A stretch of DNA of 59,298 bases from an uncultured Candidatus Saccharibacteria bacterium (GCA_964600085.1 CAZRHU010000002.1:1-59298); one strand, 5' to 3'. Positions 8,889 through 59,298 are shown, counted from the first letter of the stretch. The notes: generated by a model from the sequence alone, not told the origin. A program made the numbers and translations.

Positions 8889-8889
8889 A

Positions 8890-11878: not shown

Positions 11879-13240
11879 TTAATTAAAAAGCCTACTCTTT
11901 ATAAGATCTATTTCTTCGTTGAAATTTTCATTATTTTTAATTTCTTTCTCTATTTTATTACAAGCGTGCATAACCGTTGTATGGTCTCTTCCGCCAAACT
12001 TTTCTCCTATATACGGATAAGAGTTCTTAAGCTCTCTTCTTATTAAATACATACAAATTTGCCTCGGTCTCACAATCTCTCTTTTTCGGGATTTATTAAT
12101 AAGATCCTCTTCTTTAACATCATAAAAACTAGAAACAATTCTTATTATATTTTTAGTGTTTATTTTAGCTTTACTTTTTTGATTTAAACTAAGGAGACTT
12201 CTAACCCTCTCCACTGAGGGAGTTTTACCTGTTAGGTGGGTTGTCGCCACAACCTTATTTAAAGCTCCCTCTAACTCTCTTATATTAGAAGAAACCGTAT
12301 TAGCTATAACACCAAGAATCTCATCGTCAACTCCATAGCTTTTCTCTTCTACCTTTGTTTTTAAGATGGCTAACCTTGTTTCGTAGTCGGGCGCTGATAT
12401 ATCAGCTATCATCCCCCCTTCAAAACGTGAACGAAGTCTTTCCTCAAGAGTTGGTATTGCTTTTGGTGGCCTATCCGAGGATAGGACGATCTGTTTATTT
12501 CTTCCGTGAAGATCGTTAAAGGTGTGAAAAAACTCTTCCTGAGTTTTTTCTTTTCCAGATATAAATTGGACGTCATCCAGTATTAAAAGATCTACTTTTC
12601 TATAATCATTTTTAAATTCCTCGGTGCCCTTTTTTGATATAGCTGACACAAGATCCCTAGTAAACTTTTCTGAGCTTACATATTTTATTTTCTTTTGGGG
12701 ATTGTTGGTTTTTATATAATTTCCAACAGCCTGTAAAAGGTGTGTTTTTCCTAAACCGACCCCACCGTATATAAATAAAGGGTTGTAAGTTTTACCCAAG
12801 TTTTCACTAACGGAAACAGAGGCGGCATGAGCTAGTTCGTTAGAAGACCCAACCACAAACGATTCAAAGGTGTATTTAGGATTAAGGTTGGTTTCTTTAT
12901 CTGTATCTACTTCCGCGAAGTTTAACTGGTTTTCTAAGGCAGCGGTGTCCACCTCTTTCTTTTTTGTTTTCTTTTCTCTTATCGCCAACTCTTCTTGGGG
13001 TTTTATGATAAATTTTATATCTTTTGTGTCAGAGGTTATATTTCTTAACGACTTTAAAACAAGTCGGTTATATTTTTTTTCTAACCACTCTTTAGTGAAG
13101 GTGTTTGGGACAGCTAGAACAACAACACCATTCTTTTTCGAGATAATAGATGTATTTTTAAACCATGTAATAAAATTAGCCCTCGATATAGATAGTTCTA
13201 TTTCAGCTAAAGCTGACTGCCAAAGTTCTTCTTTGTCCAT
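11879..13240 (-). CDS. dnaA: chromosomal replication initiator DnaA
   Basis: Walker A GGVGLGKTHLL, Walker B LLILDDVQF, sensor and arginine finger motifs, and a C-terminal box-binding HTH (GGRDHTTVMHA). Confidence 0.95.
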   Translation of the reverse strand: MDKEELWQSALAEIELSISRANFITWFKNTSIISKKNGVVVLAVPNTFTKEWLEKKYNRLVLKSLRNITSDTKDIKFIIKPQEELAIREKKTKKKEVDTAALENQLNFAEVDTDKETNLNPKYTFESFVVGSSNELAHAASVSVSENLGKTYNPLFIYGGVGLGKTHLLQAVGNYIKTNNPQKKIKYVSSEKFTRDLVSAISKKGTEEFKNDYRKVDLLILDDVQFISGKEKTQEEFFHTFNDLHGRNKQIVLSSDRPPKAIPTLEERLRSRFEGGMIADISAPDYETRLAILKTKVEEKSYGVDDEILGVIANTVSSNIRELEGALNKVVATTHLTGKTPSVERVRSLLSLNQKSKAKINTKNIIRIVSSFYDVKEEDLINKSRKREIVRPRQICMYLIRRELKNSYPYIGEKFGGRDHTTVMHACNKIEKEIKNNENFNEEIDLIKSRLFN

Positions 13241-15456: not shown

Positions 15457-15960
15457 CTAAAGGCCTAGTGCTGGTTTAGCGCCTGTTCCTATCATTCTAA
15501 CAACATAAGTGTCTGAATCACAGGCTAAAAAGGGAACGTTGGCTGGCGGAGGTAGTTTTTTAAGCCCTTCGATAATAGGTTTAGTAACGGTCTTAGACCA
15601 GGTTAATCCTAGAGACCACTCAAACATACTAATAGGTTTAAATTCATAAACCTTAGTTGGAGAAAATAATTCTAAAATATCGCTAATACCTGGTATTTTA
15701 CCAAGAATTCCACCTGACATATCATCGGCACTTATCACATAAGCCTCTACTGGAACAGGGTTGCCGACTTTAATTTTTTTAAAAGGACAACCCGCTCCGG
15801 GTGGGATTATTAATTTTATTTTTCCACCAAAGGGCTTACCTCCCACACTAAGGTCATCAACAGGACCTATGGCCGAGGTTGTGTTGGTTAAGAAGAAAAC
15901 AAAACCCAAAACCAGGATTAGTATTAGAGAGAAAGTTGTTAATTTTAATTTATGAATCAT
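15457..15960 (-). CDS. T4SS-like operon, last gene: N-terminally anchored or secreted protein, unknown
   Basis: 167 aa with an N-terminal TM/signal segment. Its start overlaps the upstream stop by 4 nt (15957-15960). Confidence 0.6.
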   Translation of the reverse strand: MIHKLKLTTFSLILILVLGFVFFLTNTTSAIGPVDDLSVGGKPFGGKIKLIIPPGAGCPFKKIKVGNPVPVEAYVISADDMSGGILGKIPGISDILELFSPTKVYEFKPISMFEWSLGLTWSKTVTKPIIEGLKKLPPPANVPFLACDSDTYVVRMIGTGAKPALGL

Positions 15961-17081: not shown

Positions 17082-17104
17082 GTTGAAATAAGTGTTTTAT
17101 TAGT

Positions 17105-18465: not shown

Positions 18466-18469
18466 ATTT

Positions 18470-18802
18470 TTAAGTAGCTTTTTTTAGGGCTTTAAGCGGT
18501 ATTTTTTCTGTTACTTTATGTCTTAGATAAATAGCTATAACCATTAAGGTAAAGGGTGGAAGAATTTGTAAGATAGGAATTATCTCTACTATCATACTAA
18601 CACTTCCTCCAATTGCTCCCTTAAGACCCAATCCATTAAAGGCAAGCCACAACCAAAGAGAAAGAGAAAAAACGAACATTAAGACCGGGTTAAAAACTTG
18701 TCCAATAAAAGGTATTAAACTAATAAAGAAGCTGGCAGCATCAGCTAAAATAGCTGTTGTGAGCATAAATATAAATGTTGTTTTAGATAATTTTCCGTCC
18801 AT
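18470..18802 (-). CDS. T4SS-like operon: small 3-4 TM membrane protein, unknown
   Basis: 110 aa, almost entirely hydrophobic, with 4-nt gaps to its neighbours. Confidence 0.6.
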   Translation of the reverse strand: MDGKLSKTTFIFMLTTAILADAASFFISLIPFIGQVFNPVLMFVFSLSLWLWLAFNGLGLKGAIGGSVSMIVEIIPILQILPPFTLMVIAIYLRHKVTEKIPLKALKKAT

Positions 18803-18806
18803 AGTA

Positions 18807-20582: not shown

Positions 20583-20589
20583 AATGTTT

Positions 20590-21252
20590 TTATTCTGGTT
20601 GTTTTTCTTCTTCCCCGGTGGCTAATAATTGTTCAAAGTTATCTTGCTTTAAGGTTGTGTCTGGGTTATATAGGCTGTGGTAGAGCTCAACTAACTCTCT
20701 ATCTCTTAAAGGAATAGCTCTTAAACTCATTTGAGAAAGAAGATTTATTATTCTACTCATTCTTAATTCTAATTCTTCTACCGCTTCTTCCATCTCTAGA
20801 TCTTTCTTCTTTTTTTTATCCTCTTTACCCGGAACTATCTTTTCTAACCAACCCTTCTTTTTTACGATGGACATATCGTAAGGAACTACTATGTAAAAAA
20901 ACTTAGACATAATATTAGACAACTCTATCAACTCATCTACAAAATCTAGATACTCGGAGGTCTGAATTTTTAAAAGTTCATTATCTTGCTCTCCCTGTTT
21001 TTCTTTAAGGAAAGAAAAATACTCACTAAGGTTTAAGGGTCGTGAATGGATGATAATTTGAGTTGTAAAATCCAGAGAATTTAAAAGGTTTTGGAAAGAG
21101 TTTATAATCGCTTTTTTCTCATCGTTAGATTTTAAGCTAAAGTTTAACGATGAAACCATTAGAACACCCCTAAAGTTGCCGTTTTTTAACACAACGGTTC
21201 CATTTCTTATCTCTTTAACATCTACAAATTGATGGGTTGATTGTTCAGACAT
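20590..21252 (-). CDS. VirB4 N-terminal domain encoded as a separate ORF
   Basis: VDVKEIRNGTVVLKNGNFRGVLMVSSLNFSLKSNDEKKAIINSFQNLLNSLDFTTQIII resembles the N-terminus of Gram-positive VirB4/PrgJ/TcpF proteins. 220 plus 591 aa equals a typical VirB4 length. Seven nt and a frame change separate the two ORFs. Confidence 0.6.
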   Translation of the reverse strand: MSEQSTHQFVDVKEIRNGTVVLKNGNFRGVLMVSSLNFSLKSNDEKKAIINSFQNLLNSLDFTTQIIIHSRPLNLSEYFSFLKEKQGEQDNELLKIQTSEYLDFVDELIELSNIMSKFFYIVVPYDMSIVKKKGWLEKIVPGKEDKKKKKDLEMEEAVEELELRMSRIINLLSQMSLRAIPLRDRELVELYHSLYNPDTTLKQDNFEQLLATGEEEKQPE

Positions 21253-21255
21253 AAT

Positions 21256-21543
21256 TTAATGTTTATTCTTTTTTTTCCAGTGATATTCTTGGGGTTTAAA
21301 AGCAAAACCTATTAGAGATGTTAAGTATCTAGGTAAGCTCATTCCTCCTATCTTAACGAAGGCAAGAGAGAAAGCAACTACAGCTATAGGGATAGAAACA
21401 GTAATGGCGTAAACCAACCTAAAGAGAAAAAAAGATATAAATACAAGAGCGCCTCCCCCGGCCAAGTATAAAAATTGTTTAATAGTAAAGGGGCCTACTA
21501 TCTTGTCTTCAACGTCTATAAATTGTGGAACTTGGTAACGCAT
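21256..21543 (-). CDS. PrgI/VirB3-like small membrane protein
   Basis: 95 aa. The YQVPQFIDVEDKIVGPFTIKQFLYL motif followed by two TM helices is typical of PrgI-like proteins. It sits immediately upstream of virB4, as in virB3-virB4 and prgI-prgJ. Confidence 0.55.
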   Translation of the reverse strand: MRYQVPQFIDVEDKIVGPFTIKQFLYLAGGGALVFISFFLFRLVYAITVSIPIAVVAFSLAFVKIGGMSLPRYLTSLIGFAFKPQEYHWKKKNKH

Positions 21544-21557
21544 AATTTTTTAAAAAA

Positions 21558-22208
21558 TTAATCTCTAGGTTTTTCTCTACGAGGAGGTATTTTAGATAGG
21601 TCTATTGTTCTGCCATTCCATACTCCTTTTTTGGTGGGTTGGGAAGTCATTGTGGCTTGGGTGGAATCTTCCTCGTTCTCTTTTAATTTATTTATAAGAT
21701 CTTCCTTTCTCTTTTTGGCGACATCTTCTTTATTCTCGGTTTCTATCTCTGGTTCCACGATTACTGGCTTTGGTTCTTCTTCAGGAATAGGTTTTGGTTC
21801 TGGGGTCTTATTTTTATTTACCACATCTTCTGACTTTAAGTCGTGAACTAGTAATAAACTTTCTCTTACAGGTTGAAATATCTGTTCATTTATATCTCCA
21901 GCCAGTAGAGATGCTTTTTGAATGTCTATATTTAAAGCTTTAGAGAGCTCTTCTATAAAGTCGCTTACTTTTATTACTCCCAACATTACTAAGCCAATAA
22001 CTCTAGCGACACCGCTTACGCTTTCGTCAGGCAAGCCGTTTTTAGTTTTAACGATATTCCAAACTTTACTACTAGTCTCTTCCGAGATCATTGTTTCTCT
22101 AAGGTCTTTAGGGAGTTGGTAATACAAGGCAACTCTCTCTCTTACCAGAGGACTTTCTATCTGACTTATGTCGTCTAATTGTTGGGGTGTTAAAGTTTGC
22201 GTCTTCAT
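21558..22208 (-). CDS. T4SS-like operon: soluble protein with Glu/Lys/Pro-rich tail, unknown
   Basis: 216 aa with no TM segment. Confidence 0.55.
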   Translation of the reverse strand: MKTQTLTPQQLDDISQIESPLVRERVALYYQLPKDLRETMISEETSSKVWNIVKTKNGLPDESVSGVARVIGLVMLGVIKVSDFIEELSKALNIDIQKASLLAGDINEQIFQPVRESLLLVHDLKSEDVVNKNKTPEPKPIPEEEPKPVIVEPEIETENKEDVAKKRKEDLINKLKENEEDSTQATMTSQPTKKGVWNGRTIDLSKIPPRREKPRD

Positions 22209-22229
22209 AGTGTTCTTTTAAATTTGTTT

Positions 22230-24191
22230 TTATAGATCTATTTCCTTAGTCCCGGATTCAGCCTGCCAGTCCTCGGTATCTTCTCTATCTCTCATCGCTT
22301 GGTGTCCCGGACTTCCTTGAAGGTGCTCCTGAAGTTTTTTAGGCATCCTATCTAAATTTTCATCTAACAGAGTCAATAATTGGCCATGCCTTTTTGAATT
22401 TTCTTCTAAAGATTTATTAATATGAGCTGTTGTAAATCTTTTATCGGCAAACCTATCTACCACTATCTCTTGAATCACGTCATCTTCAAAGGCATTATCA
22501 CTAAGTGTTTTAGCAAATTCGGTTGGTTTAGACGGCATTACATTTTCTATTATGAACTTCTTAATTTCTTCTCGTTCCTCTCTGTTGTCTTTTGATAATC
22601 CAGTAAGACCCTTCCAAGCAGCTTGATCTTTTTCACTTATTCTAGGGTTTGAGGCCAATTCTTTCTGAACTTCTTTTTCCATAGCCCAGTGAGGCACGGA
22701 TTTTAGAATATCTTTTATATCAGCCCCAGAGTTAATAACGTCAGGCAGGTGTTTTTTATCACCCTCTTCTAATTTTCCTTTCTCGGCTAGTAATTTTAAG
22801 GCCTCTACCCTCTCCGCTCTCCCTTTTCGTGTAGTTACGGTTTGATTAACTTTCTGTCTTAGGGCTGTTGGGTCTCCTTTTATTTTTTCTACTTCTTTAG
22901 AGGCCTCTTTTAGGGTTTCTTGTTCTTTTTTATAGGTGTGACCAGGACCGCCCGCCATTTTTCCAATAACTGGTAACCCCTCTGTTTTTTTCCGAAAAGC
23001 TATTTCTTTTTCAGATATCTTTTCGCCTACTGGCGTTCTTTCAAGAATCTCCCCAGTTCTTTTTACTGCTTTACGGGGTGACTTTGCTAAATACTTTCCC
23101 CCTGTCTTCATCTTACCTAGAGACCAATTTTTAGCTTTATCGCTCCAGTTTTTTGCCATACCAGCTCCTGCCAAGCCCCATTTTTGAGACGTTATAAGGC
23201 CGAAGAAGAGAATAAACAGGACGGTTAAGTACTGTAGAAAAAGAGTGATGTTTTGAAATGGCTCTCCTCCTCTCTTAGTTAATTCTCCCGATATCTCTGG
23301 AGCATTGCCAAACAATGATTCGCCAAACCCTAAACCAGTCAAGAGAGCTAAGTATATAAAAAAACCAAAGATGGCTGGGAAAAACGCCCACTTTAAGAAA
23401 TTATCCCACCACCCCGACCAGATTTTTTTAGTATCGGGTAATATATAAGACGCCCAAGCAAATGGTGCTAATATAAGCAAAACCCAGAGATAAATAATTC
23501 TAAATATCATTATTAAAGCCATGGCGAAAAGGAGAAAAGCCACTATGATGACAAAAATTAAATTCATTACTCCACGAATAAGAATGTTTATGTCGTCACT
23601 AGCTGTTTCTCCTTCAGGGTCTATTGTGTTGTATTTAGGAATATTAAATGTGTTGCTTATAGCTAAAGCAGCTTGAATATTATCTCCTACGTTTACAACC
23701 TCCCCCTTTTCGTTAACAGCTCCCGCTGAAGTAAAGAATAAACCCACATCATTTCCCATATCTATAAAGACACCTCCTATTACTAAGCTGAAGTTTATTA
23801 ATAGAGCTATTAGTATGAATTTAGGAAGAAGTTTTTTAACACCATAATTATCTAATTTTAAAATAGTAGCCAATCCGATATACAAGAGTATAAGTATAAA
23901 GAACATATTAGCTACGTCTCTTGATATTGCCCAACCTTCGTTTACTAAAGGATTATTCATAAACTCTCCAGCACTGTAAGACCAGTTAACCAAAGCTCCA
24001 GCTATAGGTAAAAGTACGGCCCCAAAGAAGTTTGCTAAAAAGTGAATAAACCAACCGACTGGTGAAATTAGAGCATCACCCACAAAACCAGTAATAGGAT
24101 TAGCTTTAGCAAAGTGGATTGGAACTAAAAGACCTCCCCCAATTGTGAATAGGGACAGAAGTAAAACATTATATTTATTTCTATATTCCAT
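22230..24191 (-). CDS. VirB6/TrbL-like polytopic membrane protein with hydrophilic C-terminal domain
   Basis: 653 aa. Six or more TM helices occupy the first 340 aa or so, followed by a charged C-terminal half. Size, topology and position match VirB6/TrbL/PrgH-type channel subunits. Confidence 0.55.
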   Translation of the reverse strand: MEYRNKYNVLLLSLFTIGGGLLVPIHFAKANPITGFVGDALISPVGWFIHFLANFFGAVLLPIAGALVNWSYSAGEFMNNPLVNEGWAISRDVANMFFILILLYIGLATILKLDNYGVKKLLPKFILIALLINFSLVIGGVFIDMGNDVGLFFTSAGAVNEKGEVVNVGDNIQAALAISNTFNIPKYNTIDPEGETASDDINILIRGVMNLIFVIIVAFLLFAMALIMIFRIIYLWVLLILAPFAWASYILPDTKKIWSGWWDNFLKWAFFPAIFGFFIYLALLTGLGFGESLFGNAPEISGELTKRGGEPFQNITLFLQYLTVLFILFFGLITSQKWGLAGAGMAKNWSDKAKNWSLGKMKTGGKYLAKSPRKAVKRTGEILERTPVGEKISEKEIAFRKKTEGLPVIGKMAGGPGHTYKKEQETLKEASKEVEKIKGDPTALRQKVNQTVTTRKGRAERVEALKLLAEKGKLEEGDKKHLPDVINSGADIKDILKSVPHWAMEKEVQKELASNPRISEKDQAAWKGLTGLSKDNREEREEIKKFIIENVMPSKPTEFAKTLSDNAFEDDVIQEIVVDRFADKRFTTAHINKSLEENSKRHGQLLTLLDENLDRMPKKLQEHLQGSPGHQAMRDREDTEDWQAESGTKEIDL

Positions 24192-25146
24192 TTATTAAAA
24201 CATCACTTACCCAGATGCTTATTATTGCTCCCACCACCTCATAAAAAGTGTCAGCGTTTTGGACCAAGTGATCAACCTCTGCTCCAACAGCTCTATTAAC
24301 TTGGTCCGATATGTTTATACCAGGAGTTATGGTTATTAGGTCCTCTGGTGGACAAGTAGAGATGTCGCCACCACTTATACATTTTTGCTGTGGTCTATAA
24401 CCTTGATAAGCTACAACCTGCGTTTCTTCTGCTTGTAGTGCTTCTCCCTGGCGCAGTATCTGTTCGTCTCTAGTTTCTAACCAAAAACCCAATTCGTTAT
24501 TAGATGATTCGTGAAATCTTATCCATCTATCCCAGCTACCACTTCTAAAATCATCAAAAAATCTCTCAATAGCTTGGGATTGAATATTTATAGCATCGGT
24601 TAGAGAACAAGCAAAAGGGGAAGATCTATACCACCGCGGTAATGAGTTGTGGAGTATTATCTCGAATTGGGGCCTAAAAGGTGTGCAGATATCTACACCT
24701 ATAACTTCTTCAACAAAACTGGCAGCGGTTACATCAACTGTACGTTTAAACTCCTCCTTAAAATTTTCTATAAATTTATCGGTGTCTCTAACAAAGTCTC
24801 GAATATCATTAGCAAGAGCTATAATAAGAGCTCTCTTAAGCTCTTGTGAGTAGCAATGTTTTTGGTTGTCTTTTTCTCTAGGAATATCCGTTTCTACTGT
24901 TACAGGGACACTGTCACTACCAAGCCCCACATCTATACCTAAATCAAAAAAATCTCCTCCTAAGTCTCCTAACCAATTATCCATAAGGCCTGTAAGTCCA
25001 TCCATCACCAAGCACTTCGCAGCACCAGCAGCAAAATCGTCTAATAAAACAGCCTCTACCTCTTGAGCACGAAAAAAGAAAGTAGAGGTTAGAGAAGATA
25101 TAACCAGAATTACAACAATTACTTTTTGGATTTTAGAATAAATCAT
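24181..25146 (-). CDS. T4SS-like operon: secreted or anchored protein, unknown
   Basis: 321 aa with an N-terminal hydrophobic segment. Overlaps the downstream gene by 11 nt and the upstream gene by 4 nt. Confidence 0.6.
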   Translation of the reverse strand: MIYSKIQKVIVVILVISSLTSTFFFRAQEVEAVLLDDFAAGAAKCLVMDGLTGLMDNWLGDLGGDFFDLGIDVGLGSDSVPVTVETDIPREKDNQKHCYSQELKRALIIALANDIRDFVRDTDKFIENFKEEFKRTVDVTAASFVEEVIGVDICTPFRPQFEIILHNSLPRWYRSSPFACSLTDAINIQSQAIERFFDDFRSGSWDRWIRFHESSNNELGFWLETRDEQILRQGEALQAEETQVVAYQGYRPQQKCISGGDISTCPPEDLITITPGINISDQVNRAVGAEVDHLVQNADTFYEVVGAIISIWVSDVLINGI

Positions 25147-25904
25147 TCTAAAGACTTTTTTATATCGCGGAAATAATTCGTAATTTCTATACCCAGATCC
25201 TGGATCTTATCAGCGGCTGCTATAACTAATATGCCACGCACATTATCCTCTTCCTTTTTAAGAAAACCGCTTTCTATAAAAGCTTGGATGGCTGAAGAAA
25301 AAACTAATAATTTTTTATGGAACTCTACATACTCAACTGGAACCTCTAATTTTCTCGATGCTTCATCCCCAGCTTGAACCAACTTAACAACATTTTCTAA
25401 TCTCCCCCTCTCTTTAAGAGTGACAGATAACGGATCAGAGACCATTAGGGTTTCTTGCCAAGCTCCAAGCAAAACCAAAACCTCTTTTGTTATTTTTTTA
25501 ACATAAGTTTTTTTATCAGCTAGTATCTGTAGGTTTAAATCTTTATCTTTTATCTCTGGAAAAATTGATTGTATTTCTTTTTCCAAAAGAGGTGAAATTT
25601 CCTCCATAATCTCTTTACTTTCTAGATTCTCTTTATTTATTTCTCCAGAAGCAATCTTTTCAGATAAAAAGAATAAGAAGCTGTCTGTCGACGAATTCTT
25701 TTCAGAACCAGAGATAAAATCTAATTCTTTTAATATTTCGTTAGTTGAAGATTGATAAGGAATAGAATCGATATTCTCGCTCCATTGAACCTGCCCTTCA
25801 CTTGTTTCACTCTTGAGCACTAAAAAACCGCCGATAAAAACACCGGCGATAAGAAACACCACTCCGCTAATAGACAAAATTATTTTCCCCCTCCGATTGT
25901 TCAT
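25143..25904 (-). CDS. T4SS-like operon, first gene: bitopic membrane protein, unknown (VirB8-like topology only)
   Basis: 253 aa with a single N-terminal TM. A 280-nt AT-rich intergenic region lies upstream. Confidence 0.6.
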   Translation of the reverse strand: MNNRRGKIILSISGVVFLIAGVFIGGFLVLKSETSEGQVQWSENIDSIPYQSSTNEILKELDFISGSEKNSSTDSFLFFLSEKIASGEINKENLESKEIMEEISPLLEKEIQSIFPEIKDKDLNLQILADKKTYVKKITKEVLVLLGAWQETLMVSDPLSVTLKERGRLENVVKLVQAGDEASRKLEVPVEYVEFHKKLLVFSSAIQAFIESGFLKKEEDNVRGILVIAAADKIQDLGIEITNYFRDIKKSLE

Positions 25905-37902: not shown

Positions 37903-38838
37903 ATGCTAAAAAATCTTTTAAAAGACTATCTTGATTACTTAGAGATAGAAAAAAATCGTTCTATAAAGACGGTTGAGAACTATAAAAGATACCTCAGTCA
38001 TTTCTTAGATTGGGCTAAGGTCTCTAAGCCCAGAGAGATAAACGACGATTTGGTTCGGAAGTATAGAATATATTTAAATAGGGAGGGAGGAAGAGATAAA
38101 AAACCCCTAAAGAAAATAACCCAGAACTACTATATTATAGCTTTGAGGGGGTTTTTAAAATACTTAACCAAGAGAAAGATGGATTCTTTAGCTCCCGAAA
38201 GAGTAGAACTCGCCAAGACCTCAGAGAGAGATATAGATTTTTTAGAAGTAGAAGAAGTGGAAAGATTATTATCTTCTCCAGACACTACTAACTTGAGAGG
38301 TCTTCGCGATAAGGCGATATTAGAGACTCTCTTCTCTACCGGGCTCAGAGTCTCAGAGATTTGCGGTTTAGACAGGGACTCAATAAATTTTAAACGCAAT
38401 GAATTTTCTATTAGGGGTAAGGGTGATAAGGTAAGAGTTGTTTTTTTATCTGAAAGAGCTAAAAAAGCGCTAAAGGAATATCTAGACAAAAGAATTGACA
38501 TTGATGAAGCTTTGTTTATAAGAGTGTTAAGAGGTAATTCTTTCGGCGAAGGGTCTTCTTCATCAGATCTTCGATTAACACCCCGTTCTATTCAGCGTCT
38601 AATAAAAAAATATGCCACCAAGGCCGGATTAATAAAAGACATTCATCCTCACACCTTAAGACATAGTTATGCCACCGATCTTTTACGAAATGGTGCTGAT
38701 CTTCGCTCTGTCCAAGCTTTACTGGGACATTCTAATATTACCACTACTCAAATTTATACCCACGTTACAGACAAGCAGCTCCGCGAAGTTCACCAAAGGT
38801 TTCATAGTAAAAAAAGAAAAATTAATAACTCTAACTAA
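37903..38838 (+). CDS. xerC: XerC/XerD-type tyrosine recombinase
   Basis: N-terminal SAM-like domain. Catalytic residues are present: R (TGLRVSE), HTLRHSYAT and [15 protein letters not shown]. Confidence 0.85.
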
Positions 38839-40807: not shown

Positions 40808-41137
40808 ATGGAAACCATCTCTTTTGAGGATTTTAAAAAATTAGATATTCGGATAGGAGTCATAGTTTCTGCCGAAAAGATAGAGGGCACAGATAAACTT
40901 CTAAAGCTTACGGTTGATCTGGGTGACAAAGATCACAGAGTGGTAGTAGCCGGAATAGCTAAGAGCCACAGCCCAGAAGATTTAAGGGGCAAACAGATTC
41001 CTATGGTTGTTAACCTGGAACCAAGAAAATTAAGGGGAGTTGAAAGTCAGGGTATGATCTTAGCAGCTGTTGTAGATGGAAAAGCTGTTTTATTAAGCCC
41101 CGATAACGATGTTCCACAAGGAACAAAAGTAAGTTAA
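40808..41137 (+). CDS. tRNA-binding (EMAP/CsaA/YgjH-like) OB-fold protein
   Basis: FKKLDIRIGVIVSAEKIEGTDKLLKLTVDLG..VVAGIA..NLEPRKLRGVESQGMILA is typical of the tRNA_bind domain. Confidence 0.85.
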   Translation: METISFEDFKKLDIRIGVIVSAEKIEGTDKLLKLTVDLGDKDHRVVVAGIAKSHSPEDLRGKQIPMVVNLEPRKLRGVESQGMILAAVVDGKAVLLSPDNDVPQGTKVS

Positions 41138-51894: not shown

Positions 51895-53679
51895 TTACCA
51901 ACTACCACCACCTCCGCCGCCAGAACCGCCGCCGGAAAAACCTCCACTGCTGAAACCGCTACTAGAACCTGATCTCGGAGAACTAATATTAAAAACATGA
52001 TTGAAAGAGTTATTAAATACAATCATATTTTTTACAAGATCGTGACTATTAAATCTTGACGAGGTTGAATCTTCATACCAACTTGGTGTTTTTTGGTATA
52101 CGTTTTCAAACTTGTTTGCCCACTTATCTTCAACGCCCAAAACCATAGCGTAAGCCAGAAATTTTTCAAAAATTTCTGGCTCTAATTTCGGAGCATTAAG
52201 AAGTTCCAACTTATCTTTTTCAGTTAATTGTAAAAACTCTCTAAATCCTAATATTTTCTTTAGCGTAGACATTCCAAGAGATGTTAGTTTATTGGTTTGT
52301 TTAGCCAATAAAACAGAAAAAAAGATTACCAAAGCAGTAATAATAAAAACAATCAAGAATCCGATTTTACTCATAAATAGCAAAGATATTAGAAATCCTA
52401 CAAAGAAAGTGATTATTAAAATCGATAATGCGATTTTTATTTTTTTATATTTTTTATCAATCTCTTTTTTAAAATAGCCATTATTTTTTAACTTTTCTTC
52501 TACATCATCCTTTATTTCTTCAATATTAGAATGAAAGCTTGTTCTCTCATCTTCTAGGTCACTAAGCTTAACGCTTTCTCTGTTGCTGAATAATAAATCA
52601 AAAATTATTTTATCCACAGAATTAAGTGGTCTGTTGTTATTTTTCGTTTTTACTATTTCAAAGTCGTTTTTATCAGGAAGAAAACGAATTTTTTTAGTAA
52701 TGTATTTAATTTTTATAAATCCTCTTACAGCTAAGTCTATAATTATTGAAGATACATCTGTTGTGTCAACTTGACGATCTAATATTGTTCCAACCTCAAT
52801 GGGCGATAAATTACTTGGTGGGTCGTATGAAACAATAATGGGTTCTCCTCTTAACCTTCTTGGAATAACTGGTCTTGGGTTCTTTTTCCTGTTTTTATAA
52901 ATTAGAGACAGAATGATGATCATAATTAGAATAATAAGAGGAAGAAAAGCGACTAGTATGAAAAATTTGTTAGAGTTCGAATTTTCTGGTTCAACATATA
53001 CGTTCTGCACATATGTTGGAGGAAAACCAACCACAATGGTTAATCCTTCTCCCACATCAAGAGGCTTAGTGGTTTTATATTCTACAGCTGAATTATTATG
53101 GCTGAAAGTACAACTTTTGTTATTTTCCCCATAAAGTCCAGTGAAACACCTTGTCATGACATCGGGAATCATGGGGTCTGGAAGAATTACTTTAACGCTT
53201 CCAGATAATATTTCCACGGGCCAATCATTTCCTGTAGCATTCCAATACAGCTCATCATGATCTTCAAATTCTCTAATTGCGTTGTAGGCCTTGTAACTAA
53301 TAACATAATTATTTGGACCTGTTATTAATTTATTTGGGTCACCTATTTTGATGGTTAGTATGTTATTTGAAAGAGATGTGACGTATGAGTAAGGATTGCC
53401 TTCTTCATCTGTAACATTGAGAACTTCAACAATTAAGGTTGGACCGTCGGCAGGTTTTAGAGGTATCTTTCTAAAGATGCCGTGCCCCGGATTCTTTTTA
53501 AAGTCATAGACTATATTTTCAATAACATCAATAGATCCATCTTCCTGAATAGTTATACCAACCCCAAAATTCTTTATCAATTCACTTTCTGCCTTAACTG
53601 TTTTTGCTAAACCAAAAAAAGCCAACAAAAACAGAGCAATAAACAACCCTGTGCTGACTTTTTTATTTGTGAGAAACAT
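51895..53679 (-). CDS. DUF2207-like membrane protein with Gly-rich C-terminus
   Basis: Signal peptide, large extracytoplasmic N-domain, three TM segments and a C-terminal SSGGFSGGGSGGGGGGSW. It is paired with lemA, as is usual for this family. Confidence 0.75.
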   Translation of the reverse strand: MFLTNKKVSTGLFIALFLLAFFGLAKTVKAESELIKNFGVGITIQEDGSIDVIENIVYDFKKNPGHGIFRKIPLKPADGPTLIVEVLNVTDEEGNPYSYVTSLSNNILTIKIGDPNKLITGPNNYVISYKAYNAIREFEDHDELYWNATGNDWPVEILSGSVKVILPDPMIPDVMTRCFTGLYGENNKSCTFSHNNSAVEYKTTKPLDVGEGLTIVVGFPPTYVQNVYVEPENSNSNKFFILVAFLPLIILIMIIILSLIYKNRKKNPRPVIPRRLRGEPIIVSYDPPSNLSPIEVGTILDRQVDTTDVSSIIIDLAVRGFIKIKYITKKIRFLPDKNDFEIVKTKNNNRPLNSVDKIIFDLLFSNRESVKLSDLEDERTSFHSNIEEIKDDVEEKLKNNGYFKKEIDKKYKKIKIALSILIITFFVGFLISLLFMSKIGFLIVFIITALVIFFSVLLAKQTNKLTSLGMSTLKKILGFREFLQLTEKDKLELLNAPKLEPEIFEKFLAYAMVLGVEDKWANKFENVYQKTPSWYEDSTSSRFNSHDLVKNMIVFNNSFNHVFNISSPRSGSSSGFSSGGFSGGGSGGGGGGSW

Positions 53680-54236
53680 TAAAAAGATACTTTTACCAAT
53701 TCTTTTTCACTTTCTTCTGCCCCAAAAAAATCTGATTTCTTGAAACTAAACAGGGTAGCGATAATATTGGTTGGGAATACTTGGATAGTGTTATTCAGTT
53801 CTCTTGTTGCAGCGTTGTAGTATCGTCTTGCTGACTCGATATCATTTTCAACTGTAGACAGCTCATCTTGTAGCTTTTGGAAATTTTTTGATGATTTTAA
53901 ATCTGGATAGTTTTCAGCAACCGCAAAGAGATTTTTTAAAGCACCAGTCAATGAATTCTCTGCTTTGGCTCTTTTTTCCACATCCCCTTTTTGGTTTATA
54001 GCTTCAGTTCGTGCTTTGGTAACTTTTTCGAGAATTGATGCCTCGTAATCCTTATAGCCCTTAACAGTTTCTACAAGATTAGGAATCAAGTCGTAGCGTT
54101 TTTTGAGCTGGACGTCTATATCTGCCCAAGCATTTTTAACTCGATTATTCTTCTTTATTAGTGAGTTAAACGCAATTACAATCCAAATAATTATAATAAC
54201 TCCGATTCCAATCAATATTAAATAAGTTAAAGGCAT
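53679..54236 (-). CDS. lemA: LemA family protein
   Basis: N-terminal TM then [27 protein letters not shown]..YYN, typical of LemA. Confidence 0.9.
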   Translation of the reverse strand: [185 protein letters not shown]

Positions 54237-54301
54237 AGTTTTTAAGTTTAACTAATATTAAGATTATTATATCAATTTTAGAAAATTGTGACTAGATAAT
54301 C

Positions 54302-54329
54302 AAAAAAACACCCACGGGGGTGTTTTTTT
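54302..54329. terminator. bidirectional intrinsic terminator (copy 2 of identical element)
   Basis: AAAAAAACACCCACGGGGGTGTTTTTTTGA is identical over 30 nt to 51848-51877. Confidence 0.8.
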
Positions 54330-54344
54330 GATTTAAATTTCCAA

Positions 54345-54953
54345 TTATTTCTTTTTGGTTTTCTTACTCTTCTTGTCGGGGTAGATTATCTCATCTACCA
54401 CTCCATATTTTTGGGCTTCTTCTGATGTCATCCAAAAATCTCGATCGGTGTCTTTTCCTATTCTAGATAAAGATTGACCTGTATGTTTAGCTAAAATTTT
54501 ATTCAATCTCTCTTTTAGATTTACTATGTGTTTTGCGGAGATCTCTATTTCTGTGGCCTGTCCCTCGGCTCCACCCATTACCTGGTGTATAAGCACTTCC
54601 GAATTAGGCAAGGCAAACCTCTTCTTCTTAGCTCCAGACGCTAAGAGTAGAGCTCCCATAGAAGCGGCGATGCCGACGCAGAATGTTTGGATGTCACACT
54701 TCACATGTTGCATGGTGTCGTAGATAGCCATTCCGGCTGTAACTGATCCGCCCGGACTGTTTATGTAAAGATAGATATCTTTTTTAGGATCTTCGCTTTC
54801 CAAGAATAAGAGCTGAGCAATAACCGTGTTAGCTACAGCGTCTGTAATAGGGCCACCGACGAAGATTATTCTTTCTTTAAGAAGGCGAGAATAAATGTCA
54901 TAAGCCCTCTCTCCTCTGTGAGTTTTTTCTATTACCGTTGGAATTAATTGCAT
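54345..54953 (-). CDS. clpP: ATP-dependent Clp protease proteolytic subunit
   Basis: Catalytic Ser (GIAASMGA), His (IHQV) and Asp. The N-terminus [22 protein letters not shown] matches the family. Confidence 0.95.
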
Positions 54954-54961
54954 GTCTTTAG

Positions 54962-56242
54962 TTATGATTTTATAATATTTTTTTCTAAAAATTCAAAGAC
55001 CTTTTCATTTCTAACTATACTCTGCACATAATTACTAAGAGCTTCTAGATCAACATCTTTAGAATCTTTAATATCTGGAGCTCCATTGATTATTTCTTGA
55101 GTTTTAGCTTCAACCTCTTCTTTAGATGCGGATATATTTTCCTTTTTTCCTATCTCTCTTAAGACCAAAGCAGACCTAACTCTTTTCTCAGCCTGATCTC
55201 TCCACTCTTTTCTAAGGTCTTCCTTTTTCTTTTTTAAGTGAGTTAAGTAATTTTCTTCATCTATATTCATTTTAGCTAAAGAAGATGAGAATTCTCCTTC
55301 CATCTTGTTGAGTTCTGCCTCTACTAATCCTTCGGGAATGTCCATAGAGCTATCTTTGACTATGGTCTCGACTATGTTGAGACGTGTTTTTTCTTTCTCT
55401 CTCTTCTTCTTCTCTTCTTCAAGCCCTTCTCTAACGTTATTTTTCAAATCTTCTAGAGATTGGAACTTGCCTAACTTTTTAGCAAACTCATCATTTATCT
55501 CGGGCAGTTCTACCTCTTGCACGTTTATCATTTTTACCTCAAAGTTCAGTTTTTTTCCAGCTATGTTTTTTTGGTGGTAGTCTTCCGGAATAGATACAAA
55601 AAACTCTTTTTCCTCTCCTTCTTTTAAGCCCTCTAACTTTTCCTCAAACCCCGGTATAAAGTGTTCCTCACCAATTATTAAGGGGTGTTGTTTGCTCTCT
55701 CCTCCTTCAATGGGCGCTCCATTTAAAGTAGCTTTAAAGTCAATTTCCACACGATCTCCCTTCTTGGCGGGTCTGTTGGCGTTTGAATAGTCTGCTCTTG
55801 ATTTTTGTAGTGTTTCTAGAGCTTTTTCTACTTCTTTTTCTTCTACTTTTACTTCTGCCGGTTTTATTTTTATGTTTTTATAATCTCCTAACTTTACTTC
55901 AGGCATAACAGAAACAATAGCTTTATACACAAGAGGATTTCCAGGCGCTGTCTTTAGGGGTTCTATTTGGGGTTGAGAAATTACCTCTAATTTTTCTTCC
56001 ATCGCTACTTTAGCGAACGATTCTTTAATTGCTGTGTCCACAACCTCTTTGAAGAATTTTTCTTTTCCAAGGTGGTTTTCTAATATTTCTGGGGGAACAC
56101 TTCCTTTGCGAAAACCTTTTACCTCTAGAGATTGCGAAAGCCTTTGGGCTGTTTTTTTCTTATACACTTCTAATTCTTCGGTTGATAATTCTACCTTTAT
56201 CTCTACTTGTGATTTTGGAAGGTCTTTTATTTCTTTAGTCAT
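54962..56242 (-). CDS. tig: trigger factor
   Basis: N-terminal ribosome-binding GFRKGSVP motif, a central FKBP-like domain and a C-terminal arm. Sits upstream of clpP. Confidence 0.9.
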
Positions 56243-56271
56243 AGTTTGTTAGTTGGTGTTTAGTGTTAAGA

Positions 56272-57669
56272 CTAATCTTCTTTTTTATCATCTAACTTTT
56301 CTTTATTATTATCTTCTTCATCTTCATCTTCATTCTTATCCGTATCGCTTTCCTCTTCCTCTTCCTCTTCCTCTTCCTCTACCCCTGCCTCTATTTCTGC
56401 CTCTTCTCCTTTCTCTTCCTCGGGAGTTGTTGAGGGGTTGCTTTCCGCGACAGCTTCCTCAATTTCTTTTTTGTGTTCTTCTTCGCTTACACCCTCTTCT
56501 TCTAATAACTTCTCAGCTCCTCTGACATCTATTTTCCAGCCGGTAAGTTTAGCGGCCAGGCGGACGTTCTGTCCTCTTCTTCCAATAGCTAATGATAATT
56601 GATCTTCACTAACATCTACAACAGCAGTATGATTTTCTTCATCCAGATCTACATTAAGAACCTTTGCTGGCGATAGAGCGTTGGCGATAAAGTTTTCAGG
56701 GTCTTCTTCCCAAGCTGTAATGTCTATATTTTCGCCTCCCAGCTCACTAATTACAGCGCTAACCCTGATTCCTTTTTGTCCCACACAAGAGCCAACTGGA
56801 TCAACTCCTTCTTCGTTTGAAGAAACGGCTATTTTAGTTCTTGAGCCGGCCTCCCTAGCTATTGATTTTATCTCTACAATACCAGAAGCTATCTCTGGAA
56901 CCTCAAGTTCGAACAACTTAGAAACAATTCGTGGGTGACGTCTTGATAAAACTATGGCTGGTCCCCTAGAGTCCTTTTCTACTCTCACAACATAAACTCT
57001 TATTCTTTGTCCAGAGCGGTACCTTTCGTGAGGAATTTGTTCTTCTGGAAAAATAACACCGGTACTTCTACCTATATCAAGGTGCACCACCCCTCTTTCT
57101 ACTCTCTGGACTATTCCGGAAACAATATCTCCTTCCTTTTCTTTAAATTCTTCAAAAACAGCGTTTCTTTCAGCTTCTCTTATCCTTTGAATTACAACCT
57201 GTTTAGCTGTTTGAGCAGCGATTCTTCCAAAATCCTCTTTTGTTTCTAACGGCAGAACCAACTCTTCTCCTGCTTTAATATCCTTTTTTTCTTTTTTAGC
57301 GTCTTGAATCATCATGTGTCTCTTAGGATTGAAACGTACTTTTTTTATTTCTTCCTCCTCCTCTTCTTCTTGGGGCTCTTCTTTTTCTTTTTTATCATCA
57401 GAATCTTTTTCTCTTTTTTCTTCCATTTCTTTCAACTCGTTTTCAGAATAGATCATATCTTTATCAACCACTAGAAAAACCTGGGAAAATTCGGCTTTTC
57501 CTGTCTCTTCATTAAACTCTGCTCTTATATTTTCTCCTCTTTCTCCGTAATCTTTTTTATAAGCAGCAGCTAAGGCCTGTTCAATAATATCTGTAACCTC
57601 TTCCTTAGAGATGCCTTTTTCCTCAGCTATCTGGTCCATAGCCGATAGAAATTCTTTTATATTTATCAT
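56272..57669 (-). CDS. nusA: transcription termination/antitermination factor NusA with acidic insertion and acidic tail
   Basis: N-terminal domain, S1 and KH1/KH2 (GQKGIRV, GRRGQNVRLA). There is an acidic roughly 40-aa insert after the N-terminal domain and a roughly 90-aa Glu/Asp-rich C-terminus. Confidence 0.9.
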   Translation of the reverse strand: MINIKEFLSAMDQIAEEKGISKEEVTDIIEQALAAAYKKDYGERGENIRAEFNEETGKAEFSQVFLVVDKDMIYSENELKEMEEKREKDSDDKKEKEEPQEEEEEEEIKKVRFNPKRHMMIQDAKKEKKDIKAGEELVLPLETKEDFGRIAAQTAKQVVIQRIREAERNAVFEEFKEKEGDIVSGIVQRVERGVVHLDIGRSTGVIFPEEQIPHERYRSGQRIRVYVVRVEKDSRGPAIVLSRRHPRIVSKLFELEVPEIASGIVEIKSIAREAGSRTKIAVSSNEEGVDPVGSCVGQKGIRVSAVISELGGENIDITAWEEDPENFIANALSPAKVLNVDLDEENHTAVVDVSEDQLSLAIGRRGQNVRLAAKLTGWKIDVRGAEKLLEEEGVSEEEHKKEIEEAVAESNPSTTPEEEKGEEAEIEAGVEEEEEEEEEESDTDKNEDEDEEDNNKEKLDDKKED

Positions 57670-57866
57670 ATGTCTATTGTTTATCTTTTTTATTATCTAC
57701 ACCCTGTATTCTCTTAATCTTAATGACCTGAATATTTTATTAGGAAGATTAAGATTGTATTATATTCTTAAAAGAATAGCCCGCTTCTTAGCGGACCATA
57801 ATCAAGTAAAACAATCTTGAAAAAAGTCTAGCAGATAGAGATATGGGTGTCAAGCGAGGGTGGTTT

Positions 57867-58523
57867 TTAAGAAAAATAAACAGCTTTTTCTATGTGTTCT
57901 ATCTTAGCTCTACCTGTGTTTTTATCCAATATAATTCCAATTACGTCAATCTGCCAATCAATATTATTAGGTAATTTTTTATGAGATAAGTAAAGTTGAC
58001 AAGAACGCATTAATCTTTTTTGCTTTGAGTAAGTCACTTGTTCTTCCGGCCTCATTATATTTGAGCTCATTGTTTTAACCTCAACAAAGACAATCTTCTC
58101 TCTGAATGCATGTATTGAGCTTTGTTGAATTGTTCTACGTGGAACAATTAGTTTGTTTTTGCTAAAAATAGATTTTAATTTATTCCATATTGTTCTACGT
58201 GCTTGTCTGTTCCGTAGGCGGGGAACATTTTGATCTTTTTTCTCATTTTCTAGCTTTCTATTTTTCTCCATAATTGTTCCACGTGGAACAATTCGATCTT
58301 TTTTCTCAATTTTTAATTTTCTATTTTTCTCCATAATTGTTCCACGTGCCTGCCCGTTCCGTAGGTGGGGAACAATATCTTCTTTTTTAGAGCAAATAAT
58401 GTCAATTTCTCCCCATTTTCGACGAAAATTTCTATCAATTATCTTGTAACCTTTTCTTTCTAGGTGTTTTGAGGCTATTTCTTCTCCCCAAGCCCCAATT
58501 TTTATATTTGAACTGTTTCCCAT
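57867..58523 (-). CDS. yraN: YraN/UPF0102 PD-(D/E)xK nuclease-fold protein carrying a roughly 95-aa repeat insertion
   Basis: GAWGEEIASKHLERKGYKII..RKWGEIDII and VFVEVK..QKRL..IDWQIDVIGI match YraN. The normal spacing of about 5 aa between the D and ExK motifs is replaced by IVPRGTI/IVPHLRNGQARGTI repeats. Confidence 0.8.
   Translation of the reverse strand: MGNSSNIKIGAWGEEIASKHLERKGYKIIDRNFRRKWGEIDIICSKKEDIVPHLRNGQARGTIMEKNRKLKIEKKDRIVPRGTIMEKNRKLENEKKDQNVPRLRNRQARRTIWNKLKSIFSKNKLIVPRRTIQQSSIHAFREKIVFVEVKTMSSNIMRPEEQVTYSKQKRLMRSCQLYLSHKKLPNNIDWQIDVIGIILDKNTGRAKIEHIEKAVYFS
58138..58385. repeat. four palindromic repeat units (two short, two long) plus a duplicated 45-nt spacer, in frame inside yraN
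   Basis: Short units AATTGTTC(C/T)ACGTGGAACAATT lie at 58138-58159 and 58282-58303. Long units ATTGTTCYACGTGC(C/T)TG(C/T)C(C/T)GTTCCGTAGG(C/T)GGGGAACA lie at 58199-58238 and 58345-58385. Confidence 0.85.
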
Positions 58524-58594
58524 TTTTTCTTTTTATTGATTTATCAACTCACAGTCGATCCACTGAAGGTTGATAATTTTTTATTTTCTCTTAA

Positions 58595-58636
58595 AATTGT
58601 TCCACGTGCCTGCCCGCTCCGTAGGTGGGAACAATT
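58595..58636. repeat. fifth copy of the long palindromic unit, intergenic
   Basis: AATTGTTCCACGTGCCTGCCCGCTCCGTAGGTGGGAACAATT, 72 nt upstream of the yraN start. Confidence 0.85.
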
Positions 58637-58694
58637 TTAAAAATCAATAACTCTATAATTTTTAAGGTTATATAATCTATTATCTTGAGACACT

Positions 58695-58828
58695 GAACCT
58701 GTCCGGTCGAACCTGTCCGGTCGAACCTGTCCGGTCGAACCTGTCCGGTCGAATGACCGGATGACTGGATGACTGGATGACCCCTCAAGAGGGGTCGAAC
58801 CTGTCTGGTCGGATGACCGGATGACCCC
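58695..58828 (+). repeat. GC-rich tandem-repeat promoter-upstream module, copy C
   Basis: GAACCTGTCCGGTC x4 (58695-58750), GAATGACCGGATGACTGGATGACTGGATGACC, hairpin GACCCCTCAAGAGGGGTC (58779-58796), a further 14-mer, then GGATGACCGGATGACCCC abutting TTGACA. Confidence 0.85.
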
Positions 58829-58857
58829 TTGACAACTTATCATTTTATTGATATAAT
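58829..58857 (+). promoter_or_regulatory. consensus sigma70 promoter TTGACA-N17-TATAAT
   Basis: TTGACA at 58829-58834, 17-nt spacer, TATAAT at 58852-58857. Confidence 0.75.
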
Positions 58858-58906
58858 AGAACACATAGTTCCAATTTTGTCCAAAATGCTTTAACAAGGA
58901 GAAATT

Positions 58907-59101
58907 ATGAACAAGACTGAGATCGTCCCAACTTCTTCTGTCTCTCACTCAAATCGCTCCAAGCTCTTTCCTCGGCGCTGTGCCCCAACTCAGGTCGAGG
59001 CGCAGAGAAGAGAAGAGGTGGACTGGTCCTTCGGTCGGCGAGCCGGTCGGGTCAAGAAGTTTGATCCTCATGCCAACATGCTGGAGATCTCCAGGGCCTG
59101 A
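58907..59101 (+). CDS. 64-aa basic protein of unknown function in a GC-rich mini transcription unit (could instead be a non-coding RNA)
   Basis: AAGGAG lies 7 nt upstream of the ATG. The unit sits between a consensus promoter and a 15-bp-stem terminator. Hand count of 58981-59040 gives 38/60 G+C, and codon usage (GTC, CTC, CGC, CTG, AAG) is unlike neighbouring genes. Confidence 0.45.
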   Translation: MNKTEIVPTSSVSHSNRSKLFPRRCAPTQVEAQRREEVDWSFGRRAGRVKKFDPHANMLEISRA

Positions 59102-59123
59102 CGGACAAGTACCATTTTCTGAC

Positions 59124-59169
59124 GGAGCTCCGATCCGCCAACTGGCGGATCGGAGCTCTTTTCTTTTTT
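59124..59169 (+). terminator. strong intrinsic terminator
   Basis: GAGCTCCGATCCGCC-AACT-GGCGGATCGGAGCTC followed by TTTTCTTTTTT. Confidence 0.85.
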
Positions 59170-59176
59170 AATACTT

Positions 59177-59206
59177 TTGCTAATCTGTTACTATATATTA
59201 TATAAT
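59177..59206 (+). promoter_or_regulatory. candidate tRNA promoter TTGCTA-N18-TATAAT
   Basis: TTGCTA at 59177-59182 and TATAAT at 59201-59206, about 20 nt upstream of the tRNA. Confidence 0.45.
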
Positions 59207-59225
59207 TGTATTTCAGAAATACAAT

Positions 59226-59297
59226 GCGCCTGTAGCTCAATGGTAGAGCGCTAAGCTTATACCTTAGTGGTTCTAGGTTCGAGTCCTAGCGGGCGCA
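59226..59297 (+). tRNA. tRNA-Ile with genomically encoded UAU anticodon
   Basis: Acceptor GCGCCUG/CGGGCGC, D-arm GCUC-AAUGGUA-GAGC, anticodon stem CUAAG/CUUAG with loop CUUAUAC, and T-arm CUAGG-UUCGAGU-CCUAG. The window ends 1 nt after the discriminator. Confidence 0.75.
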
Positions 59298-59298
59298 C

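Follow-up and report, generated by a model that had tools for sequence, protein, structure and literature searches.

The yraN gene and its repeats

The DNA analyzed here, referred to as the window, is a complete contig of 59,298 nucleotides (nt) from an uncultured Candidatus Saccharibacteria bacterium (GCA_964600085.1 CAZRHU010000002.1:1-59298). The open reading frame (ORF) list and a Pfam match placed a yraN gene (UPF0102) on its minus strand (57867..58523), coding for a protein of 218 amino acids. Copies of a palindromic repeat were found inside this gene and in the DNA just upstream of it. The match of the protein to PF02021 (UPF0102/YraN; E=6e-22, 78.2 bits versus a cut-off of 23.6) was divided into two stretches with an insert between them. 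This insert (residues ~43-145, ~58089-58397) lies between the catalytic Asp and the E-x-K motif. The spacer between GEIDI and FVEVK measured 103 residues and was the longest among the 120 closest homologues, whose median is 9. The original prediction, made from the sequence of the window, had stated that YraN proteins normally have only a few residues at this position, which was borne out, and that about 95 residues intervene here; the long insert was confirmed. Altogether, the loop of the catalytic core is lengthened by about 94 amino acids.

The catalytic residues D41 and E148-x-K150 were intact and formed invariant columns in an alignment of 32 sequences. In the AlphaFold model, the predicted local distance difference test score (pLDDT) exceeded 90 at residues 1-50 and 140-218 and was ~47-57 in the insert, and the best Foldseek match was 3fov, a UPF0102 protein (E=2.7e-4, target-normalised TM 0.80). 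Pfam match, catalytic residues and modelled fold indicate that the window protein is a UPF0102 PD-(D/E)xK nuclease, which keeps the D...ExK motifs and the fold of this family and differs from its other members by the 103 residues between the motifs, compared with ~9, and by the disorder of the insert. The confident core, the low scores of the insert and the match to 3fov argue that the insert is a disordered surface loop, which in the model loops out of an intact nuclease core between the strands that carry the Asp and the ExK, as had been considered earlier.

Four copies of the repeat lie inside yraN. The short copy at 58274-58291 (TTGTTCCACGTGGAACAA) is perfect and reads IVPRGTI on the coding strand; its core TGTTCCACGTGGAACA (58275-58290) corresponds to V-P-R-G-T. 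The other short copy (TTGTTCTACGTGGAACAA, 58130-58147) carries one mismatch and reads IVPRRTI; in its core TGTTCTACGTGGAACA (58131-58146), read V-P-R-R-T, C6 is changed to T. The 18-bp palindrome of the original prediction was thereby recovered at 58274, but only in this one of the two short copies is it perfect. The long copy at 58337-58375 (TTGTTCCACGTGCCTGCCCGTTCCGTAGGTGGGGAACAA), which reads IVPHLRNGQARGTI, is composed of TGTTCCACGTG, a 21-nt insert CCTGCCCGTTCCGTAGGTGGG (58349-58369) and GAACA. A second, degraded long copy at 58190-58228 (TTGTTCTACGTGCTTGTCTGTTCCGTAGGCGGGGAACAT) reads NVPRLRNRQARRTI and has its 21-nt insert at 58202-58222. The fifth copy, again a long one, was confirmed in the non-coding DNA upstream of the gene (58597-58634, with a 20-nt insert at 58609-58628), although it lies 73 nt and not 72 nt from the yraN ATG. 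It comprises 38 nt, compared with 39 nt for the long copies inside the gene, and neither 38 nor the 20 nt of its insert is divisible by three, as expected if the reading frame constrains only the coding copies. The four copies in the gene are spaced by 60, 84, and 63 nt, all multiples of three, they share one reading frame and the ORF stays open throughout, in agreement with the earlier description of an element that sits between the catalytic motifs and keeps the frame.

Tandem Repeats Finder reported a duplication of a 63-nt unit (58222..58348, 2.0 copies, 90% identity). This unit consists of a right arm, a 45-nt spacer encoding MEKNRKL(K/E)...EKKD and a left arm, and it contains the duplicated 45-nt spacer that had been noticed before. 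In addition, the repeat search revealed a spacing of 144 nt between repeat pairs, each made up of a short and a long copy, with the same base at site position 6 within each pair. The C6-to-T exchange of the degraded long copy is shared with the neighbouring short copy, which argues that the pair was duplicated as a 144-nt unit; this duplication would be the older one. The sequence shows that the array grew through in-frame tandem duplication of 63-nt and 144-nt units.

With up to two mismatches, the 12-mer of the repeat occurred 10 times in the window, compared with 2.2 +/- 1.4 times in shuffled sequences (0/100 shuffles reached 10), and the convincing matches were all located inside one stretch of 500 nt, ~45 kb from dnaA. 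Neither the repeat unit nor its 21-nt insert was found outside 58130-58634 in the 59,298-nt window. Confinement of the repeat to one place, which had been named as evidence against a genomic repeat, was hence observed for the available sequence.

Comparison of the repeats with parS

The chromosomal parS site, a palindrome of 16 bp, is where dimers of ParB (Spo0J) are loaded onto the DNA, from which they go on to spread and to recruit SMC; few protein-binding DNA sequences of bacteria are more conserved. Comparison of TGTTCCACGTGGAACA with the parS consensus TGTTNCACGTGNAACA, which was derived from ten sites (PMC7022226 Table 1; also PMC4333373), revealed no mismatch; all 14 specified positions were identical. 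We therefore consider it probable, with good confidence, that the repeats represent chromosomal parS sites arrayed in frame within yraN, where tandem duplications that kept the frame increased their number. A ParB orthologue of the host would bind the intact sites, the one at 58275 and more weakly the one at 58131, and would load there. Only duplications in multiples of three would survive because YraN must stay functional, and the loop would tolerate the parS-encoded peptide because it is predicted to be disordered and surface-exposed.

A parS site inside a gene is already known from Bacillus subtilis, where TGTTCCACGTGAAACA is located within the parB coding sequence (PMC4333373). The B. subtilis sites (TGTTNCACGTGAAACA, including the one inside spo0J/parB) resemble the repeats in being the same 16-bp palindrome within coding sequence and presumably in their origin-proximal location (PMC4333373, PMC7022226), and in our translation the Spo0J site reads V-P-R-E-T, in the same frame as V-P-R-G-T in yraN. 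They differ in that the host gene there is parB and here yraN, that several copies here form an array lengthening the loop of a catalytic core by ~94 amino acids, and that three of the five copies here are split by a hairpin. Moreover, the variable parS positions are both C/G here, leaving no stop codon in any frame, whereas TGTTTCACGTGAAACA has a TGA in one frame. What is new is the array that stretches the loop, the conserved tie to yraN and the split sites. Clustered parS arrays near oriC also exist in Streptomyces, Corynebacterium and Caulobacter. In Myxococcus xanthus, 22 clustered parS sites lie near oriC (PMC3899335). Such arrays have in common with the one described here that several closely spaced sites make up one centromere region; those of other bacteria extend over many kb, taking in a number of genes and the DNA between them, mostly in the vicinity of parAB, whereas throughout a whole phylum the array here stays with a single small gene, the ORF of which may contain it completely. 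One more parS-like sequence was seen in the window, TGTTCCACAAGGAACA at 41110-41125 upstream of a gene for an HtrA-like protease; it has parS arms, a non-palindromic centre and two mismatches, and its occurrence is at chance level in 59 kb.

The closest homologues of the window YraN were proteins of Parcubacteria-type Patescibacteria, and many of these proteins also have an insert there, of differing length. A homologous insert, which had been put forward as contrary evidence, is therefore present in relatives, so that this contrary evidence was obtained in part; the insert contains parS and a short shared peptide, (RGT)xxxW[LIF]KxLF. The peptides VPRGT, CSTWN, and MFHVEQ found in these proteins are the three reading frames of GTTCCACGTGGAAC, as checked on the fetched DNA. 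In a metagenome-assembled genome (MAG) of Sungbacteria (L003), yraN harbours parS-like sites in frames 0, 1, and 2 (MFHVEQ, CSTWN, VLRGT), and at this and three further loci (L003-L006) the only sites with up to two mismatches in 9-20 kb were inside yraN. The codons for VPRGT were always GTT CCA CGT GGA ACA in five genomes of 37-55% GC. In total, 43 exact parS-encoded peptides were counted in 32 of the 120 closest homologues, with a roughly estimated chance expectation below one. More distant YraNs contain VSRET and VTRET in another loop, encoded by GTTTCACGTGAAAC and TGTTACACGTGAAACT (T/A variant), and have further parS sites just outside the gene. The same 16-mer was thus met at the same locus in relatives with 35-50% protein identity and 37-55% GC, and it differed between lineages only at the two positions that are free in the consensus. 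Non-coding copies exist in the window (58597) and at L051, L076, L008, and L010. The use of three frames, the invariant codons and the non-coding copies indicate that the constraint acts on the DNA and not on the peptide.

These data also bear on the idea that the insert belongs to the protein, as a repeat or a domain of low complexity, and that the palindromes are a by-product of a repeated peptide. The peptides are indeed repeated (IVPRGTIMEKNRKL...) and close relatives share W[LIF]KxLF, which in the window reads TIWNKLKSIFSKNK and was modelled by AlphaFold as a helix of low pLDDT (residues ~110-120, 58160-58192). However, one DNA 16-mer is read in three frames in relatives and yields unrelated peptides, the codons of VPRGT do not vary, copies lie in non-coding DNA and the pLDDT of the insert is low. 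The three frames and the invariant codons already largely refute this explanation, which we hold to be extremely improbable, and the original prediction was right in regarding the unit as a DNA-level element. In the inserts of the closest relatives, the W[LIF]KxLF segment after the parS-encoded RGT looks amphipathic and resembles membrane-targeting helices, at low pLDDT. From this sequence pattern, the loop may not be wholly without a role at the protein level.

Linkage of the sites to yraN was followed in a species scan (one genome per GTDB species) that relied on the YraN peptide motifs KWGEIDI[VI] and KGYx[IV][IL][ED]RN[FY] only. It returned at least 80 loci; the matches listed included ~50 from Patescibacteria and 20 clearly from other phyla, and the genome of the window was not among them. 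For the Patescibacteria loci listed (~50 species), all 11 perfect parS sites were within 1 kb of yraN and none was found in ~650 kb further out; with up to one mismatch, the density of sites was 0.49/kb inside yraN, 0.014/kb at 2-5 kb and zero beyond 5 kb. The same result was obtained when 8-mers within 1 kb of yraN were compared, free of any motif, with those beyond 2 kb in the listed Patescibacteria matches: the top 8-mers near yraN were fragments of parS, namely TCACGTGA (34 versus 0) and CACGTGAA (87 versus 3, 27 loci), and ACGTGAAA and CGTGAAAC (30 loci) also ranked at the top. No parS site was detected in the 20 non-Patescibacteria yraN loci among the matches listed (333 kb).

In the non-coding DNA directly upstream of yraN, L051 has five perfect parS sites and L076 three, ~50-170 nt apart. 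Such multi-site arrays have the architecture typical of centromeres, which we count in favour of parS. At L087, it is the gene of the CCA-adding enzyme (7636-9408, minus strand, divergent from yraN) that has taken up sites: an insertion of ~35 amino acids in the nucleotidyltransferase head domain encodes VSHET, VTRVT, and VTRET, which are three parS-like sites, and a fourth site is located near the N-terminus. These sequences show that parS in or beside yraN is a DNA-level trait shared by many Patescibacteria; the conserved feature is a parS cluster at the yraN locus, the sites of which settle in whichever coding loop tolerates them.

The linkage could also be understood if YraN, or a factor associated with it, bound or cleaved the palindromes or used them for autoregulation. 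The sites would then travel with the gene across the Patescibacteria in the manner of operators, or of parS near parB, which adjoin the gene of their own binding protein. PD-(D/E)xK enzymes often recognize palindromes, and the copy 73 nt upstream of the gene falls within the presumed promoter region. On the other hand, none of the specified positions of the ParB site deviates in this sequence, which varies between lineages only at the two free ones, YraN has no DNA-reading domain beyond its core of ~120 amino acids, and the non-Patescibacteria yraN loci listed are devoid of sites. The one YraN that has been studied biochemically, from Legionella pneumophila, is reported to be a monomer that acts as a nicking and single-stranded DNA endonuclease and shows ‘highly relaxed site specificity’, and YraN is said to be a partner of the ComM helicase when transformation D-loops are resolved (bioRxiv 10.1101/2024.02.06.579203); this relaxed specificity argues against YraN itself reading the palindrome. 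A recognition site of the nuclease, one of the two possibilities raised in the original prediction, is therefore not favoured, and we regard this explanation as quite unlikely.

Split sites, ParB and the replication origin

The long forms can be described as parS sites that are split by an insertion. Excision of the 21-nt insert (in the gene) or of the 20-nt insert (upstream) rejoins the 16-mer with 0-1 mismatches in the three long forms, and exactly in the copy at 58337-58375. The inserts are GC-rich hairpins of 20-21 nt. When folded as single strands, the long forms gave modest hairpins with z from -1.3 to -3.8 (-2.4 as DNA for the copy at 58337-58375) and neither strand was clearly favoured. 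An explanation by RNA structure was dropped, as the hairpins are modest and no strand is favoured. An Rfam scan of 57600-59298 found a tRNA only and nothing at the repeats. A terminator signal (hairpin plus T-run, antisense to yraN) is scored for the repeats on the plus strand; since no plus-strand gene reads into them, this signal was set aside as a by-product of the Lys-rich coding strand.

Split sites were found in several relatives as well, and in each case removal of the insert restores the 16-mer; inserts in coding DNA have lengths divisible by three. At L008, the site is TGTTCCA[CCTGCC TTGCCGGTA GGCAGG]CGTGGAACA with a 21-nt insert, and at L007 the insert comprises 30 nt. A CCTGCC...GGCAGG stem splits parS at both loci and is common to three lineages. 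Free-standing CCTGCC-N-GGCAGG hairpins, of the common terminator-like kind, were seen at a few more loci, and the stem sequence is therefore not specific to split parS. A different form is present at L051 and L076, where a 7-nt spacer breaks parS at its exact centre (TGTTTCAC aaaactt GTGAAACA). This split site follows the palindrome ATTGTGtcgCACAAT and is part of 45-nt direct repeats that bracket the perfect sites; these direct repeats around the arrays (L051 9316-9790, L076 1700-2130) may be boundary elements.

The split forms also bear on the idea of a mobile hairpin similar to a miniature inverted-repeat transposable element (MITE) or a repetitive extragenic palindromic (REP) sequence, which would have inserted repeatedly into yraN with the frame kept by chance. 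The units are palindromic, one copy is non-coding, and the long form resembles a short form with a foreign hairpin of 20-21 nt, to which the CCTGCC...GGCAGG hairpins of L008 and L007 are related. A match of 25 nt to the hairpin exists in an unrelated ORF of L092. Like REP and MITE repeats, the unit is a short imperfect palindrome, capable of forming a hairpin and clustered; those repeats, however, are dispersed in tens to hundreds of mostly intergenic copies with lineage-specific sequence, whereas the unit here is found at one locus, phylum-wide, and equals a known protein-binding site. Neither form, nor the insert alone, occurs in the 59 kb outside the ~500-nt locus, no transposase lies near the locus, and there is no target-site duplication, removal of the insert restoring the 16-mer exactly. 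The core is the parS consensus at the same locus across lineages of 35-50% identity and 37-55% GC, and local tandem duplication accounts for the array. A metagenome collection scanned for the 20-nt hairpin insert gave two matches, approximately the number expected by chance, neither of them in a parS/yraN context. The MITE-like hairpin that the original prediction had put forward is thus not supported by these observations, and we judge it highly improbable. The match at L092 (306-335, GCCTGCCCGTTCCGTAGGTGGGAAC) is an identity of 25 nt to the window hairpin insert and its flanks on a Bacteroidetes-like metagenome contig, adjoining a Trp-tRNA-synthetase-like gene; it is probably due to chance, though the five extra flanking matches are unexpected.

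Returning to parS, a ParB dimer should be unable to span half-sites that are 20-21 nt apart. Judged by their sequence, the long forms would have lost their activity, or they would be accessory sites recognized as half-sites or by their structure. The ParB of Pseudomonas aeruginosa is reported to bind half-parS sites (PMC10419367), so that heptamers of the GTTCCAC/GTTTCAC type can be ParB targets alone, which suggests a possible role for the long forms. The half-sites of P. aeruginosa are dispersed around the genome, whereas here two halves are kept 7, 20-21, or 30 nt apart and are separated by a conserved GC-rich hairpin or a fixed spacer.

Several observations weigh against an array of parS sites. 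Of the five copies, a single one is a perfect parS without interruption, and three are split and, as duplex DNA, predicted to serve ParB poorly as substrates. The close association with yraN is left unexplained by a pure ParB model and would also fit the site of a yraN-linked factor, and (RGT)xxxW[LIF]KxLF in the YraN inserts of close relatives suggests that part of the loop may be selected as protein. Neither ParB nor ParA was detected, in the window and in related loci totalling ~1.2 Mb, by tblastn (1e-5) with B. subtilis Spo0J and Soj as queries or by motif scans. A scan of the window for DnaA boxes found no cluster and did not place oriC. The weak tblastn match obtained at L032 was a TrmB-like regulator and was rejected as ParB/ParA. 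The six-frame motif search of the window for ParB, ParA, and DnaA retrieved DnaA alone, and Pfam assigned the 20 window ORFs of ParA/ParB-like size to RuvB, YidC, KsgA, a XerC/D-like recombinase, ClpP, and others, with no Par proteins among them.

COG1475 is Spo0J/ParB. In the Parcubacteria core-gene table, COG1475 is listed in 13/17 and SMC in 14/17 genomes, and COG1192 (ParA) is absent (PMC4508563 suppl. Table 1). The clade thus has the binding partner of parS, which speaks for the parS reading, whereas the classical ParABS motor may be missing. The presence of COG1475 and SMC without ParA would also suit sites that are bound by a ParB paralogue or another factor, acting in Noc-like nucleoid occlusion or as a transcriptional silencer and not as segregation ParB, and the split sites suggest a second binding mode. 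We nevertheless rate this as very unlikely: ParB paralogues such as Noc recognize a different sequence, an exact parS consensus is what the canonical ParB helix-turn-helix would be expected to read, and ParB and SMC are known to function without ParA in other bacteria.

As parS is usually origin-proximal, the position of the cluster relative to the origin was considered. The dnaA gene (11879..13240, minus strand, GLGKTHL motif) lies ~45 kb from the parS cluster, which is consistent with an origin-proximal parS; the ORF downstream of dnaA is presumably dnaN (both at 10.5-13.2 kb). Genes are nearly all on the minus strand at 3700-39800 and at 51900-58520, up to yraN, in contrast to 58900-59298. 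The strand switch is in the intergenic region at 58.5-58.9 kb, beside the parS cluster, and GC and AT skews are negative throughout. Around dnaA (10.5-13.2 kb), there is neither a strand switch of comparable extent nor a cluster of DnaA boxes. The origin may not lie beside dnaA.

Neighbouring features and meaning for the Patescibacteria

A second group of repeats was observed at 58695-58826, with the parS cluster on one side and a perfect TTGACA-17-TATAAT promoter (58829-58857) on the other. It consists of a perfect 14-nt tandem repeat, GAACCTGTCCGGTC x4.2, after which come ATGACTGG x3.6 and CGGATGAC x2.1; the two repeat blocks are mutually inverted (TCCGGTC gaat GACCGGA) and look like an operator or iteron array. 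The promoter drives an ORF of 64 amino acids (58907-59101, plus strand), which is followed by a strong terminator (59124-59159). At the end of the contig, a gene for tRNA-Ile with the anticodon TAT (UAU) is located (59226-59298). Such a tRNA is uncommon in bacteria for AUA, the usual decoder being a lysidine-modified CAU tRNA. On the other side of yraN, NusA (56272-57669, minus strand) has an extremely acidic C-terminal tail of ~75 amino acids with Glu and Asp runs. Farther away, a block of minus-strand ORFs (15457-25904) mostly has no Pfam matches and includes a protein similar to type IV secretion system (T4SS) pilins (17105-17746), and a XerC/D-type tyrosine recombinase is encoded at 37903-38838.

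Literature searches found no paper that connects ParB or parS with Patescibacteria or the candidate phyla radiation (CPR), and no link of YraN to parS or ParB. The phylum-wide linkage of parS and yraN thus appears, from these searches and the sequences compared, to be previously unreported. A more far-reaching possibility is that yraN, the gene of ComM's nuclease partner, and the Patescibacteria centromere are linked physically and perhaps also in function, and that this is not a historical accident, with the hairpin-split sites forming a distinct functional class; we regard this as rather doubtful. Loading or spreading of ParB at yraN could then control YraN expression or tie SMC loading to recombination. 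The split sites, with spacers of 7, 20-21, and 30 nt in several lineages, might be boundaries or roadblocks for sliding ParB clamps, or alternatively structure-dependent sites, and not decayed copies.

If the sites are parS, as we consider probable, the consequences concern a group of ultrasmall, mostly uncultured bacteria whose chromosome organisation and segregation are essentially unstudied. In MAGs of Patescibacteria, the centromere could be recognized from sequence simply by looking in and around yraN. The natural split-parS variants would be suitable substrates for ParB clamp-loading assays. For annotation, VPRGT, CSTWN, MFHVEQ, VSRET, and VTRET in YraN proteins should be read as footprints of a DNA site and not as protein motifs. 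Finally, the locus would be a case of one DNA stretch with two roles, in which an essential-type DNA site, in a C/G variant that is without a stop codon in any frame, has been multiplied within a coding sequence and the protein loop pays the cost.

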